From Gammaproteobacteria bacterium (GTDB lineage Bacteria > Pseudomonadota > Gammaproteobacteria > Eutrophobiales > Eutrophobiaceae), in the NCBI GenBank assembly GCA_015661095.1, contig JACVQI010000001.1, forward strand, positions 41-64,040: a stretch of DNA of 64,000 bases, given 5' to 3'. The notes under the pieces were generated by a model that did not search any database, was not told the origin of the DNA, and saw nothing but the letters and a program-made list of their open reading frames with translations. Positions within the stretch are counted from its first letter, which is position 1. Each line of letters starts with the position of its first letter. Of the stretch, positions 20,865 through 32,398 are shown piece after piece. Made by a program: the position numbers and the translations under genes.

Positions 20865-22754
20865 TCACTTAAATTCCAGGGACTCTATCATTCTGCCATA
20901 TCCCCACTGCAATCTGTAATCTTCCCGGATGCGCTCCTGCAATTGCTGTTTTCCGGCCTGCGCCTGCCCTTTTTCCCCCATACGGTACAACAGTTGTACT
21001 TCACTCAGTTTACGTGGAATGGTAAATTCTTTCTGCAAAGATTGCCGGATAAACATCAACCCATTGTTAGTATCTCCTGCATATAACGCCAGAGCGGACA
21101 AATACTCATAAAGATAGGCACTATCATTACTGAATTCAGGGTTATCGTTCAAGCGTTTGATTAAGGCGATTAATCGCGCTGTATCCACATTCGTACACAA
21201 TCCCTTCAGAACATTCAACACTATCTGATCCAGCATGACGGCTGTCCGTAATTTATCCGCCTGCGCACGGCCAGCACTTTCCATATATTCCATCCACTCC
21301 GCATCGGCTATGGTACTACGCAGCCTGCATCCTCTTATATTCAGCCTGTTTAAATAAGGATAAATATGGCTCGGGGCCAGGTTGATCAGTCTGGTTATCG
21401 TGGTTTCGGCATTTTCGATGTCATCATTAACCAGATAGAATTGCAGCAAATCCTGCATGGCACGCTCCGAGTGTGGATGCCGCCTGGCCCATTCGACAGC
21501 CTGTATACCGGGTTTTGACCACAGTTCTATTTCCACAATAGTCACCGCGATTACCAGCAAGCAATATACACCGGCGGCCATGTAAACCAGCCATTTCCGT
21601 TGCAGAAAATCCGCGGCCCTGGTCCCCAACCAGGCTACTAAAAAAAACAGTCCGAATGACGGCAGGTAATTCCGGTGCTCAAAATAAAGCTCCAGGTTGA
21701 GATAGGTTGACTCGAGCAGATGTCCACCCAAAAACCATAATACCGAGAAGCTGAAGACGGGGTATGTTTGTCTTTTTTTCAGCGCCAGCCAGAGCAGGCA
21801 AAAGATGAACAGAGCCGAGATTAATGTTACCGGTGGTGACCACAGGCTGGACGAAGTGGGGAAATCGTCGTGATAGAGGCCGAATGCTGCAGGGCGGGGT
21901 GCGACTATATTTTGCATATACTGCGTTACCACCACCAGTTCTGTCAGTACTTTCTGCCCCATACTGTAATCCTGTGACTGATAAGAACTCGCCACACTGC
22001 TGAAGTTAACGGCAAGATAGATGGCCAGGACCAACATCGGCAATCCTAAAAACAACCATTTCCACACCGCCAGATATTTATTAACGCCGGATTTTGCAAG
22101 TAACGTCCCTTCGATGATCAACAGATATAAAGGCAGCAAGATGCCGTTTTCCTTGGCCAGAATTGCCAGCACCGTGCAGACAATCACAACCATGCTCATA
22201 AACAACAATCGGCGCCAGTCATGATCAGAAGCAGACTGCAACCGGAAGTGGAGATAACCGACAACCCCGAGCAAGGTAAACAGCGTGGATACCTGTGTCA
22301 TCCGCTGCACGACATAGAGCGTGGTACTGATCTGTATGGGATGCAGCAACCAGAGCAAAGTGACAATGACAGACCACAGGAATCGACGGTTGTGCTCCCT
22401 GGTTACCAGTCCGGCAAGCAGGTTGCACAGTAAATAAACCAGCACACCGTTAAGCAGATGCAGGCCAATATTTACGAATTTAAATGCCGTGGGATTGGAT
22501 GGCCACTGCTCGTACTGGAACGCGAATGTTAATAACGACAGCGGCCGGCCGGAAGGACCGGCGAAGCCGGAGCCGAACACATATGCCCCATACCCATAGT
22601 CCTTGACCTGATCCAGATTCTGCAGATTGTAAAAATCATCCAGCAGAAAACGGCTGCCCAGGCCGGGTAAATAGATAAGCGTAGCAAGCAACAACAACAA
22701 CGGGAGGACAGTTGTTTTCAGGATAGAGCGGATATCGGGTGCTGCAGAATTCAT
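20865..22754 (-). CDS. Polytopic membrane protein with C-terminal TPR repeats; putative GT-C fold glycosyltransferase (TMTC/PMT-like)
   Basis: 629 aa ORF with about 11-12 transmembrane segments. A DD motif (FLLDDFYNL) sits in the first extracytoplasmic loop, as in GT-C enzymes. The C-terminal 200 aa or so are helical and TPR-like. The gene lies directly downstream of the pilin gene. Confidence 0.5.
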   Translation of the reverse strand: MNSAAPDIRSILKTTVLPLLLLLATLIYLPGLGSRFLLDDFYNLQNLDQVKDYGYGAYVFGSGFAGPSGRPLSLLTFAFQYEQWPSNPTAFKFVNIGLHLLNGVLVYLLCNLLAGLVTREHNRRFLWSVIVTLLWLLHPIQISTTLYVVQRMTQVSTLFTLLGVVGYLHFRLQSASDHDWRRLLFMSMVVIVCTVLAILAKENGILLPLYLLIIEGTLLAKSGVNKYLAVWKWLFLGLPMLVLAIYLAVNFSSVASSYQSQDYSMGQKVLTELVVVTQYMQNIVAPRPAAFGLYHDDFPTSSSLWSPPVTLISALFIFCLLWLALKKRQTYPVFSFSVLWFLGGHLLESTYLNLELYFEHRNYLPSFGLFFLVAWLGTRAADFLQRKWLVYMAAGVYCLLVIAVTIVEIELWSKPGIQAVEWARRHPHSERAMQDLLQFYLVNDDIENAETTITRLINLAPSHIYPYLNRLNIRGCRLRSTIADAEWMEYMESAGRAQADKLRTAVMLDQIVLNVLKGLCTNVDTARLIALIKRLNDNPEFSNDSAYLYEYLSALALYAGDTNNGLMFIRQSLQKEFTIPRKLSEVQLLYRMGEKGQAQAGKQQLQERIREDYRLQWGYGRMIESLEFK

Positions 22755-22825
22755 TTGTCACAGCATACTTAACCCGAAAAATATTTCCATCCCGAATATG
22801 AATTACCCTTTGGCAACGGGACAAT

Positions 22826-30787: not shown

Positions 30788-32398
30788 TTATTTAATAAGA
30801 TGCTGTTTATCCGGATGTGAAAAAATAATTCTGAAGCAACACCCATTGACACTGTTCCGGTGCAGATTCAAGGTAGCCTGGTTGGTTTCACATAATTCCC
30901 GCGCAATATATAAACCCAGTCCCGATCCTTTCGTTTCTGTCGTAAAAAATGGTTCAAATAACTGGGTTTCATGACCTTCTTTTATGCCAGGGCCCTGATC
31001 GATGACATCAATATATGGTCTCTCGGTGTCCTGATGAACAGTATATTTAATTTCTATCAAAGGCTTTCGTTTGCTATACCTTAAACCGTTCTCGACCAGG
31101 TTCCATAACACCTGATGCAGTTGCAGTGAATCTATTTTGACATATATTTTCGCTGATATTTCGTTTAATTTAATCAAATCATCACTCAAGCTGTGATGCA
31201 CTTCGTATTCACGTTTGAATTCCTTCAACCAGGGTCCCAGTTCCAGCGTTACCGGTTCAGCTTGTTTACGTTTGCTGAGGTTCAGGATATTTTCAATGAT
31301 CTGGTTCACTCGTTGCGAATGCTGCTCGATAATAGTGGTTAATCGCTTATCTTCCTGCGCCAATGAGATAGATTCCGAGAGCAGTTGCCCCGCATGACTG
31401 ATTGCTCCCAGCGGGTTACGTATTTCATGGGCGATACTGGCGGTCAGCCTCCCTAAAGACGCCAGCTTCAACTGCTGCGCCCGCTGCCGAAACACCGTTA
31501 AATCATCAATAAACACCAGTATCTCGAATTCTCTCTCTATCTTTAATGTTACGATTGAAGCCTGTATATCAATGCCGGTCTTTTTTGATTTAAAGATTAG
31601 TGAACGATCGCCCTCACCTGTCTGCCAATGCCGTATGATTTCCACAAGTTCCCCGGGCAGGTCCTCGGTAAGACTCAAATGATTGATATTTTTGTCGATA
31701 CCCAGCAGTCTTTTCGCCGCTTCATTACACAAACTGACATTTATCCCGGCATCCAGCACGATGACACCGGCCTGTAATCTTTGCACGATGTGTTCATTAA
31801 GTTTCGCCAGCTTCTCCAGGTCCGCGCCTCGTTGCTGCGCCAGGGCCTCCGACTCCTTCACCCTGCCGGCCAGAATTTGACTGATGATGGCAGTCACAAA
31901 AAAGGTCGTGCCGAGAAATGCGGCATGGGTATAGTTTGGCGGTGGAAAATCGCGGACTAATTGCACATAGATCTCGTGACTTAATATCGCCAGGGTTGCG
32001 ATAGATGCATATAAGATCCCTGTTTTACCCGGGCTCAGCAGACCACCACCGGCCACGGTGATTACCAGCAAAATACCGAAACCACTGTTCAAACCGGCAC
32101 TGGCATAGATCAGTAAAGTTATACATATGGTATCTATCAGTACCTGAGCAAAAACCTGATAGGTATGTGGTGGTCTCTGGATATGAATAAACAAGTGCTC
32201 GATGATAATTACTACCAGGTAGATGTGCGAACTGATGGCAAATAATGACTTGTCATATTTGCCAAGGGGATCCGGTAATTGCCCTATCCAGTAAAGTGAA
32301 ACAAATAAAAAAGCAATTAAAAAGCGGTACAGATTAAAATAAGCCAATGCCCGCCATGCGGTTCTGCTTGGTTTGTTGATGGAAATCAGCTTATTCAT
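30788..32398 (-). CDS. pilS: Sensor histidine kinase with a 6-transmembrane N-terminal domain
   Basis: 536 aa ORF with a polytopic N-terminus, a PAS-like segment, an H-box (SIAHEIRNPL) and an HATPase_c domain (GSGLGL). Its position upstream of the NtrC-type regulator matches the pilSR arrangement. Confidence 0.75.
   Translation of the reverse strand: MNKLISINKPSRTAWRALAYFNLYRFLIAFLFVSLYWIGQLPDPLGKYDKSLFAISSHIYLVVIIIEHLFIHIQRPPHTYQVFAQVLIDTICITLLIYASAGLNSGFGILLVITVAGGGLLSPGKTGILYASIATLAILSHEIYVQLVRDFPPPNYTHAAFLGTTFFVTAIISQILAGRVKESEALAQQRGADLEKLAKLNEHIVQRLQAGVIVLDAGINVSLCNEAAKRLLGIDKNINHLSLTEDLPGELVEIIRHWQTGEGDRSLIFKSKKTGIDIQASIVTLKIEREFEILVFIDDLTVFRQRAQQLKLASLGRLTASIAHEIRNPLGAISHAGQLLSESISLAQEDKRLTTIIEQHSQRVNQIIENILNLSKRKQAEPVTLELGPWLKEFKREYEVHHSLSDDLIKLNEISAKIYVKIDSLQLHQVLWNLVENGLRYSKRKPLIEIKYTVHQDTERPYIDVIDQGPGIKEGHETQLFEPFFTTETKGSGLGLYIARELCETNQATLNLHRNSVNGCCFRIIFSHPDKQHLIK

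Follow-up and report, generated by a model that had tools for sequence, protein, structure and literature searches.

The locus at positions 19982-32398 of the 64,000-nucleotide (nt) stretch of gammaproteobacterial DNA analyzed here (contig JACVQI010000001.1; the whole stretch is hereafter called the window) raises the question of why the gene for a type IV major pilin should be enclosed by genes for membrane-embedded glycosyltransferases, and which molecule these enzymes modify. Eight consecutive open reading frames (ORFs) are located on the minus strand in this segment, and classification with Pfam and NCBIfam identified them as the regulatory pair pilSR, a trio of genes for a GT2/GtrA fusion, an LtaS-GDPD fusion and a TMEM260-like GT-C glycosyltransferase, the pilin gene pilA, and a pair of genes for a second GT-C protein and a second GT2 enzyme. 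An earlier note on this DNA had proposed a multi-enzyme pilin-modification locus, and this proposal is supported by intact folds and active sites, by synteny with pilA in gamma- and betaproteobacteria and by the recurrence of the array, with PilA as the presumed acceptor. The reading that we favor, to which as a whole we assign a probability of roughly 0.6, is that two periplasmic systems, each consisting of a lipid-phosphate-sugar donor and a GT-C enzyme, O-glycosylate PilA, with an additional glycerol-phosphate step. We are rather more confident that at least the GT-C/GT2 pair encoded downstream of pilA glycosylates the pilin.

The pilA gene (22872-23330, minus) encodes a type IVa major pilin of 152 amino acids (aa) with the leader MTKLQQG and a terminal Cys pair, as identified by the Pilin and N_methyl domains and by alignment with 50 pilins of related loci. 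It is followed by the gene for a polytopic membrane protein of 629 aa (20865-22754, minus), to which no Pfam or NCBIfam model could be matched, and which gave no match at E-values up to 10 in a sequence comparison with all PDB chains. The protein has a GT-C fold with a large C-terminal periplasmic tetratricopeptide repeat (TPR) domain, and its best structural matches are protein O-mannosyltransferases, which use polyprenyl-phosphate monosaccharides as donors. In total, 3,699 homologs were detected at E-values of 0.001 or below among the candidates examined. In an alignment of 38 of these homologs, D39 and D40 are invariant within an LLDDFYN motif that follows the first helix in loop 1, as are two Cys residues of the C-terminal domain. 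A second motif, Y279-X6-P286-X4-F291-X7-P299, is characteristic of the family, with Y279 and P286 invariant and F291 conserved in at least 90% of the members. TPR models from Pfam match 24 of the 38 proteins, and neither Pfam nor NCBIfam contains a model for the transmembrane (TM) part of the family.

The earlier note had described this protein as TMTC-like, which holds for its architecture only. No PMT_2, DUF1736 or Wzy_C domain was found in the 38 family members (at E-values up to 1, among the 25 most frequent of 47 matched families), and the protein itself is blank in Pfam, so that membership in the TMTC (GT105), PMT_2 and DUF1736 families was rejected at the sequence level. The TfpO/PilO/PglL group was likewise rejected, given a GT-C fold and the lack of a Wzy_C match in either of the two membrane proteins that flank pilA. 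Nor are these two proteins paralogs of each other, as hhalign gave a probability of only 18% and aligned no more than a short stretch at loop 1. The other structural suggestions of the note have stood up: both proteins have a GT-C fold with protein O-mannosyltransferases as structural matches and an invariant Asp in loop 1, and both carry a TPR-like solenoid at the C-terminus.

We examined the linkage of the 629-type cassette to pilA in a scan with one genome per species. At least 594 stretches encode a relative of the 629-aa protein, and the best 79 loci were examined. Of the 72 loci with enough flanking sequence, 49 have a same-strand pilin gene that ends at most 500 nt before the GT-C gene, and in 42 of 70 loci the GT-C gene is followed within 1 kb by an ortholog of the 285-aa GT2 enzyme (more than 45% identity). 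Among the 55 loci with a length of at least 12 kb, 50 contain a type IV pilus gene, 46 contain pilA and 44 contain the GT2 gene. The usual gene order in the relatives is sucC (in reverse orientation), pilS, pilR, pilA, GT-C, GT2, and the cassette was identified in Beggiatoa, Thiomargarita, Thioploca, Woeseiaceae, Arenicellales, Methylococcaceae, Pelomicrobium, Gallionellaceae, Burkholderiales and Magnetococcales, and in metagenome-assembled genomes (MAGs) of Thiotrichaceae. Prepilin-type genes are few in any one genome, and the linkage to pilA greatly exceeds what chance would produce; by a rough estimate, the chance expectation for the exact position is well below 1%. Two tandem pilA-like genes precede the GT-C gene in ten loci (L005, L006, L020, L034, L065, L070, L080, L087, L167 and L168), an indication that the pilin has been duplicated or varied along with the enzymes that modify it.

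We also compared the divergence of the individual parts of the cassette across 39 loci. The mean pairwise identity is 57% for the GT2 enzyme, 38% for the TM domain of the GT-C protein, 34% for the variable part of the pilin and only 19% for the TPR domain. The similarity of the variable pilin region nevertheless correlates best with that of the fast-evolving TPR domain (partial Spearman coefficient 0.22, with the GT2 enzyme and the TM domain controlled for; reached in 0 of 500 permutations). The signal is modest, and its direction is as expected if the TPR domain recognizes its cognate pilin. Proximity does not explain the co-variation, because the part of the gene that codes for the TPR domain is further away from pilA than the part that codes for the TM domain.

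The sugar donors are expected to be made by the two GT2 enzymes. The 285-aa enzyme (19982-20839, minus; Pfam GT2), encoded next to the 629-aa protein, matches structures of ArnC, DPMS and GtrB with E-values from 1.6e-13 to 3e-10, contains a DADGQH motif and has two C-terminal TM segments (residues 207-234 and 249-282), as in the GtrB/ArnC topology; its best matches in NCBIfam are AglJ, Dol-P-hexose transferase and PpgS. The 366-aa enzyme encoded in the upstream trio (28280-29380, minus) is a fusion of a GT2 domain to a GtrA/DPMS_TM domain (Pfam E-values 7.8e-37 and 6.6e-17). It carries a DADLQHD signature and aligns over its full length (residues 4-358, including four C-terminal helices) to the Dol-P-Man synthase from Pyrococcus furiosus (5mlz, E = 1.5e-57). 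Because of the homology to DPMS, GtrB and ArnC, the DxD...QH signature and the C-terminal membrane helices, both enzymes are predicted to be polyprenyl-phosphate monosaccharide synthases, and for the 366-aa DPMS homolog mannose would be the simplest assumption as the sugar. The matches to 5mlz, to ArnC, DPMS and GtrB and to GtrA_DPMS_TM in Pfam thus agree with the claim of two DPM1/ArnC/GtrB-type genes, one of which is fused to a GtrA-like domain.

Upstream of pilA, the GT-C gene (23604-25637, minus) encodes a 677-aa protein that matches the DUF2723/TMEM260-like family (CAZy GT117; PF11028, 83.7 bits at a cut-off of 24.2) and human TMEM260 (9rql_A, E = 5.1e-30) over residues 25-451, which comprise the whole GT-C module. 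The family assignment suggested in the note was therefore correct, and only the accession that had been given for it, PF10034, was wrong. Residue D46 aligns with Asp52 of human TMEM260, the D in GGDSG and its proposed catalytic residue (PMC10214176), and D46 and D47 are invariant in 39 homologs. In the structural model (pLDDT 91), the GT-C TM module is followed by a small alpha/beta domain and C-terminal TPR-like helical repeats. By homology, the protein qualifies as a genuine member of the GT117/TMEM260 family. A 224-aa ORF in another frame (24535-25209, minus), which is located wholly inside this gene, was judged to be an artifact of ORF calling.

A GT2/GtrA gene is located directly upstream of the TMEM260-like gene in approximately 35 of 80 metagenome loci, and the two thus represent a conserved pair. 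Linkage to a pilin is a property of a subclade of the TMEM260-like proteins only. Most of the closest relatives with adequate flanks are pilin-linked (L080, L081, L083, L084, L087, L002, L008, L012, L015, L160 and L166-L168), and no pilin was seen near another close relative, in L082. In a second group, consisting of the metagenome contigs L089, L102, L111, L115 and L138, the gene order is pilA, GT2, GT2/GtrA, TMEM260-like, and the occurrence of pilin linkage in two different gene orders strengthens the functional inference for the pair. A search of the full-text literature retrieved no report of a function or a target for bacterial TMEM260/GT117/DUF2723 proteins and none that connects DUF2723 with pilin; a study of TMEM260 that the search retrieved mentions bacterial relatives only as "distant homologs in bacteria" (PMC10214176).

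The middle gene of the upstream trio encodes an 876-aa fusion of an LtaS-like sulfatase-fold domain to a GDPD domain (25647-28277, minus; Pfam E-values 7e-37 and 2e-25). PDB matches were obtained for the LtaS-like domain with VP1736 (3lxq, E = 4e-29) and with the lipoteichoic acid (LTA) primase LtaP from Listeria (4uop, E = 2e-19), and for the GDPD domain with 2pz0 (E = 6e-12). An alignment of 32 homologs shows full conservation of E257, D468 and H469, conservation of a G294-T-K-S297 motif, and little or no variation at the GDPD residues H646, R647, E677, D679 and H692. From our own matching of positions to LtaS from S. aureus, we take E257, D468 and H469 to be located at metal-ligand positions. 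The fusion that the note had recognized is thus borne out by Pfam, by the structural matches and by the active-site residues. The hydropathy profile displays an N-terminal hydrophobic block up to approximately residue 178, which is followed by the sulfatase-fold and GDPD domains with no later TM segment, and by analogy to LtaS-family enzymes both catalytic domains are probably periplasmic.

The LtaS-GDPD fusion is recurrent, with 138 homologs at E-values of 0.001 or below among the candidates scored. The gammaproteobacterial members, with 37-55% identity, are all encoded in the slot between pilR and pilA beside GT2/GtrA and TMEM260-like genes (L087, L160, L166, L167 and L168). A fusion with 35% identity from the deltaproteobacterium Desulfotignum balticum is encoded beside a gene for a PMT_2-type GT-C protein, divergent from two pilin genes. 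At this locus (L161; ATWO01000001.1, 4612-11739), the two pilin genes are short and accompanied by a gene for a VKOR/DsbA fusion, which is likewise divergent from the GT-C and LtaS-GDPD genes. The presence of toxin-antitoxin, integrase and PDDEXK/AAA genes nearby points to a region that is mobile or variable.

The array as a whole, with the GT2/GtrA, LtaS-GDPD and TMEM260-like genes between pilSR and pilA and the GT-C and GT2 genes after pilA, was also found in at least five further genomes (L087, L160, L166, L167 and L168) with 35-55% identity. Relatives carry further enzymes in the same slots, such as acyltransferase_3 and extra TMEM260-like or PMT_2 GT-C proteins, as well as duplicated pilA genes. 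The region can thus be described as a variable island for pilin modification.

A variety of other proteins are encoded in these slots. A membrane protein of approximately 665 aa with a spermine/spermidine-synthase-like domain (E-values 7.6e-18 and 2.9e-14) is encoded in the pilR-pilA slot of L002 (4982-6976) and L087 (5127-7127), in both cases between the GT2/GtrA gene and the next modification gene, and could contribute a further pilin- or glycan-modifying activity, for example aminopropyl or methyl transfer. In L166 (5835-7940, minus) and L168 (4657-6714, minus), the same slot also contains, on the opposite strand, a gene for a GT41 OGT-like protein that is rich in TPR repeats. Recurrent proteins of 513-601 aa with no match in Pfam are encoded beside the LtaS-GDPD and GT2 genes in L160 (1-20679), L166 (10726-16901) and L167 (10664-12391); these may represent further GT-C-like transferases. 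One 517-aa neighbor in L160 has a match to PMT_2.

The promoter and terminator signals indicate how the array is divided. The only exact match to the consensus TGGCAY-N5-YTGCW in the 64-kb window is the sigma-54 -24/-12 element TGGCATcatagCTGCT (23428-23443, minus), which is located in the 273-nt gap before pilA, 97 nt before its start codon. From its position and from the adjacent pilR gene, it is predicted to act as the sigma-54 promoter of pilA. An intrinsic terminator (22823-22853, minus) is located within the 117-nt gap that separates pilA from the GT-C gene; its hairpin, 22 nt past the pilA stop codon, has a stem of 12 bp, and its 3' arm and tail are rich in U. A generic terminator scan missed this hairpin, and it was established by folding (free energy -19.8 kcal/mol, z-score -5.0, 0 of 200 shuffled sequences equally stable). 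Of 51 related loci, 43 have a hairpin and a subsequent U-run at the corresponding place, after pilA and before the GT-C gene. The three upstream enzyme genes follow closely on pilSR, with gaps of 0 nt between pilS and pilR and of 81, 2 and 9 nt thereafter.

The lone sigma-54 site before pilA, the hairpin after it and the packing of the trio onto pilSR therefore point to at least three transcription units: pilSR, probably together with the upstream trio; pilA alone, under the control of PilR and sigma-54; and the GT-C operon, which is fed by read-through of the terminator or by a promoter of its own. The suggestion of one or two operons under PilR and sigma-54 was not borne out, and a single sigma-54 operon for the whole array was ruled out by the same features. 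A terminator between the pilin gene and the accessory gene is a hallmark of the pilin-accessory cassettes with TfpO and TfpW in P. aeruginosa (PMC11841053), and the order pilin gene, terminator, accessory gene is known for both (PMC11841053; bioRxiv 10.1101/2020.04.19.049825).

In the model that we propose, PilA would be decorated after its insertion into the inner membrane and before polymerization, by two modules of the three-component type. In the downstream module, the GtrB/ArnC-type GT2 enzyme would load undecaprenyl phosphate with a monosaccharide at the cytoplasmic face of the membrane, the lipid-linked sugar would flip to the periplasmic face, and the 629-aa TfpW-like GT-C enzyme would use its loop-1 DD motif to pass the sugar to a Ser or Thr residue of PilA, with the periplasmic TPR domain recognizing the cognate pilin. 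Expression of this module would depend on the PilR/sigma-54 promoter, which drives pilA, and on the terminator, which would allow only attenuated read-through into the GT-C operon. In the module of the pilR-pilA slot, which is probably co-transcribed with pilSR, the DPMS-type GT2 enzyme with its own GtrA-like domain of four TM helices would produce a second polyprenyl-phosphate hexose, most likely mannose, and the TMEM260/GT117-type enzyme would transfer this hexose to the pilin. The LtaS-like domain may then add sn-glycerol-phosphate from phosphatidylglycerol, either to the sugar, as in GacH, or to a pilin serine, as in PptB, and the fused GDPD domain may trim, remove or reverse the phosphodiester. 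Elaboration of the glycan may fall to the methyltransferase and the GT4 enzyme encoded after the downstream GT2 gene.

We also inspected the genes that surround this core. At its upstream end are pilS (30788-32398, minus), which encodes a sensor kinase with 6TM_PilS (E = 7e-39), HisKA and HATPase_c domains, and pilR (29462-30787, minus), which encodes a sigma-54-dependent response regulator with Response_reg, Sigma54_activat (E = 2.5e-68) and HTH_8 domains. For the segment 20865-32398, all gene positions and classes that had been claimed agree with the ORF list, Pfam and NCBIfam. Downstream, the array runs on past the 629-aa protein and the GT2 enzyme with gaps of 25, 11, 4, 15 and 51 nt. The next gene (19245-19970, minus) encodes an S-adenosylmethionine-dependent methyltransferase with Methyltransf_11/23 domains, and we tentatively regard it as a probable accessory sugar-methylation gene of the same operon as the 285-aa GT2 enzyme; an ortholog adjoins the 285-aa-type GT2 gene in 5 of the 79 loci and in L160. 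It is followed by a gene for a cytoplasmic GT4 (GT-B) glycosyltransferase (17993-19240, minus; Glycos_transf_1, E = 1e-42), orthologs of which (at least 40% identity) are located after the 285-aa-type GT2 gene in 14 of the 79 loci, so that the GT4 gene is part of the cassette in some genomes. The next two genes of this tightly packed operon encode a 713-aa fusion of a zinc-type alcohol dehydrogenase to a GFO/IDH/MocA oxidoreductase (15836-17977, minus), with an ortholog in L079, and an AsnB-like amidotransferase (13886-15784); these two proteins may build a modified sugar.

Beyond the AsnB-like gene begins a low-GC cluster for polysaccharide or O-antigen synthesis with a Wzm/Wzt ABC transporter and a UDP-GlcNAc 2-epimerase. 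The GC content is 32-35% between positions 10000 and 14000 of the window (ORFs 9317-11062, 11081-11848, 11969-13036 and 12993-13877), as compared to 45-52% in the flanks. It encodes a Wzt protein whose C-terminal part is a carbohydrate-binding domain, two methyltransferases and a 355-aa ORF for which Pfam gave no match. The stretch has the appearance of a serotype-specific O-antigen segment that was acquired by horizontal transfer and whose chains are terminated by methyl caps. Further along in the polysaccharide cluster, a heparinase II/III-like protein of 788 aa (3149-5515, minus) is encoded amid GT4 genes and the UDP-GlcNAc 2-epimerase gene. The wider surroundings consist of chromosomal housekeeping genes (sucCD, nadE, bamD, clpB, pilBCD-coaE-zapD, secA and the dcw cluster), and the nearest database proteins are from MAGs of uncultured Gammaproteobacteria. 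The genes pilB, pilC, pilD (prepilin peptidase), coaE and zapD (43365-48698, plus) are located approximately 11 kb from pilS, and sucCD, nadE, bamD, rluD, gdh and clpB are located between this group and pilSR-pilA.

Several observations weigh against two pilin-modifying modules. The case for modification is drawn from the genes of an uncultured MAG, and the co-variation between TPR domain and pilin could partly reflect a shared recombination history. The wider TMEM260-like family is mostly not pilin-linked, with a pilin within 6 kb in 13 of 55 metagenome loci with flanks, which rules out pilin linkage for the family as a whole. Similarly, the LtaS-GDPD family is not wholly pilin-specific, since its members in Acidobacteria, Planctomycetota and two other genomes have unrelated neighbors. 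Within the LtaS-like domain the nucleophile is ambiguous: the Thr nucleophile of LtaP was aligned by HMMER to T299, which is not conserved, and the conserved motif is GTKS. No separate gene for a GtrA-like flippase was found for the downstream module among the ORFs of the window, while the upstream module has all three parts, and the proline motif of TfpW fits the 629-type family only with an insertion of four residues. Finally, the downstream module runs straight into the GT4, oxidoreductase, AsnB-like, Wzm/Wzt and UDP-GlcNAc 2-epimerase genes, and given this adjoining cluster lipopolysaccharide is a possible target in this genome. The GT2/GT-C pairs would then be three-component systems for O-antigen or another envelope glycan, of the kind known from Gtr-type seroconversion, the LtaS-GDPD protein would act on a glycan or a lipid, and the adjacency to pilA would merely mark a shared variable surface region. 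Three-component modification of ABC-transporter-dependent O-antigens is documented (PMC11127046), and most of the distant homologs of the TMEM260-like and LtaS-GDPD proteins are not pilin-linked. We consider an envelope-glycan target unlikely, as the order pilA, terminator, GT-C, GT2 is kept over many taxonomic orders, whatever is located further downstream. In some relatives, pilBCD come directly after the GT-C/GT2 pair; one of these is L049, where pilA precedes the pair and the vicinity is free of polysaccharide genes, which argues against the pair being the mere start of an O-antigen cluster. The upstream trio occupies the pilR-pilA slot of six genomes, and both GT-C proteins have TPR domains, like the protein-targeting TMEM260, TMTC and TfpW, and in the 629-type family this domain co-varies with the pilin.

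If a protein is the acceptor, it need not be the pilin in particular. Both GT-C proteins could be general protein O-glycosyltransferases for many periplasmic and surface proteins, with pilin as one abundant client, in the manner of Neisseria PglL or the eukaryotic PMTs. The best structural matches are indeed PMTs of broad specificity, several relatives are annotated as "protein O-mannosyl-transferase" by JGI, and about one third of the 629-type homologs and most of the TMEM260-like homologs are not encoded directly beside a pilin gene. The tight linkage of the cassette to pilA and the co-variation of the TPR domain with the pilin are at odds with such a broad role, as is the gathering of several different GT-C proteins around a single pilin gene. 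TfpW, the nearest functional analog, reportedly has a restricted pilin specificity. A general role thus seems to us somewhat less credible even than an envelope-glycan target. A third alternative, which we consider highly improbable, dispenses with glycosylation of the pilin: the membrane/TPR proteins would be non-catalytic pilin chaperones or assembly factors comparable to TfpY and TfpZ, and the GT2 and LtaS-GDPD enzymes would serve unrelated envelope functions, such as the synthesis of osmoregulated glucans or lipid remodeling. TfpY-type proteins encoded after pilA do promote assembly with no modification of the pilin (PMC11841053), and the LtaS-like domain has a weak match in NCBIfam to OPG phosphoglycerol transferase I. 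However, the fold is GT-C rather than the 3-TM fold of TfpY, the catalytic acidic residues are invariant in approximately 40 divergent homologs of each GT-C protein, and a dedicated, co-conserved lipid-sugar synthase is encoded beside each of them. Glycosylation of PilA by the two modules is therefore the reading that we retain.

Glycosylation of pilins is known from a few pathogens (TfpO/PglL and TfpW), where it is a barrier to pilus-specific phages and changes adhesion as well as recognition by the immune system. The array described here places a TMEM260/GT117 homolog, a Dol-P-Man-synthase homolog and an LtaS-GDPD fusion around one identifiable protein, which gives these orphan families a testable substrate and bears on the role of bacterial GT117 enzymes, the purpose of the LtaS-GDPD fusion and the modularity of pilin decoration. 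More speculatively, and with considerably less confidence than in the model itself, we suggest that the pilR-pilA and post-pilA slots are a hypervariable pilin glycosylation island in environmental Gammaproteobacteria, that the TMEM260/GT117 enzymes are pilin O-hexosyltransferases, probably O-mannosyltransferases, and that the LtaS-GDPD protein writes and erases glycerol-phosphate on that sugar, which would produce a teichoic-acid-like phosphoglycerol-hexose on the pili. If true, PilA would be the first predicted protein substrate for bacterial relatives of the metazoan TMEM260 pathway, and the pili would carry a reversible phospho-glycan code, probably driven by the pressure from pilus-specific phages. 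The new GT-C/TPR enzymes, with a small and defined protein acceptor, would be useful for glycoengineering.

We compared the array to systems of known function. In Neisseria, PptA adds phosphoethanolamine or phosphocholine and PptB adds phosphoglycerol to the pilin, on PilE Ser93 (PMC8445170). The likeness is one of concept, in that a small head group is put on the pilin in the periplasm through a phosphodiester bond; pptA and pptB are located outside any glycosylation array that flanks pilA, and no GDPD fusion is involved. The streptococcal GacH-I-J-K-L system is closer in gene content, since a GT2 synthase, a GT-C protein and an LtaS-family phosphotransferase are encoded together, and the LtaS-GDPD protein has the same N-terminal TM block and sulfatase-fold domain. 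GacH acts after GacI and GacL and adds glycerol-phosphate to the GlcNAc added by the GT-C enzyme (bioRxiv 10.1101/337519, 10.1101/180810). The acceptor in that system is a Gram-positive cell wall polysaccharide and there is no fused GDPD domain, while the transfer of glycerol-phosphate in our system is a prediction.

The Gtr three-component systems share with both modules a GT2 polyprenyl-phosphate synthase and an extracytoplasmic GT-C enzyme, and with the upstream module also a GtrA element, which is here fused to a GT2 domain (PMC11127046). The classical targets of these systems are O-antigens and other glycans, and their GT-C proteins have no TPR domains, whereas the conserved partner here is a pilin gene and both GT-C proteins have TPR domains. 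For the upstream module, the counterpart is metazoan TMEM260 (GT117), which resembles the 677-aa protein in the GT-C module, the loop-1 Asp, the C-terminal TPR-like domain and the partnership with a DPMS-type synthase. The bacterial protein differs in its periplasmic setting, in the extra alpha/beta domain between the TM and TPR parts, and in its presumed acceptor, a type IV pilin rather than the IPT domains of plexins, MET and RON; the transfer of mannose is predicted here from the DPMS neighbor.

The downstream module is most similar to the TfpW cassette of P. aeruginosa group IV (Pa5196/PA7), the precedent for pilin arabinosylation by a GT-C enzyme from a polyprenyl-phosphate sugar. TfpW, a protein of 646 aa encoded directly after pilA, is reported to span the membrane with 11 helices, with a DDx motif in the first periplasmic loop, a Y-X6-P-F-X7-P motif in a late loop and a poorly conserved C-terminal TPR domain. 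In architecture and position, the 629-aa protein shares with TfpW the size of approximately 630-650 aa, the location directly after pilA behind a terminator, the multi-TM GT-C module, the loop-1 DDx motif and the variable C-terminal TPR domain; a Tyr/Pro-rich late-loop motif is present as well and fits that of TfpW only with the four-residue insertion. Both pathways would use a polyprenyl-phosphate monosaccharide donor that is made in the cytoplasm, and both include a GtrA-like component. There is no tfpX-like gene here, and a second, unrelated GT-C module is located on the other side of pilA. The donor enzyme is an adjacent GtrB/ArnC-type GT2 protein, as compared to the unlinked DprE1, DprE2 and phosphoribosyltransferase genes that provide D-arabinofuranose for TfpW; none of the latter genes was found among the Pfam-scanned ORFs of the window, and they may be located elsewhere in the genome.

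The arrangement had been thought to differ from all described pilin glycosylation systems, which applies to the upstream half only. For the TMEM260/GT117 protein, the DPMS homolog and the LtaS-GDPD fusion in a conserved pilR-pilA slot, no description was found in the literature searched. The downstream half is built like the cassettes known from TfpW and TfpO: pilin glycosylation by a GT-C enzyme from a polyprenyl-phosphate sugar and the layout of the cassette are already established with TfpW, and the mechanism is nothing categorically new. What is new in this half is a variant with a GtrB-type hexose donor instead of D-arabinofuranose, a TfpW-like cassette that is widespread in sulfur-oxidizing, methanotrophic and sediment Proteobacteria from the environment.

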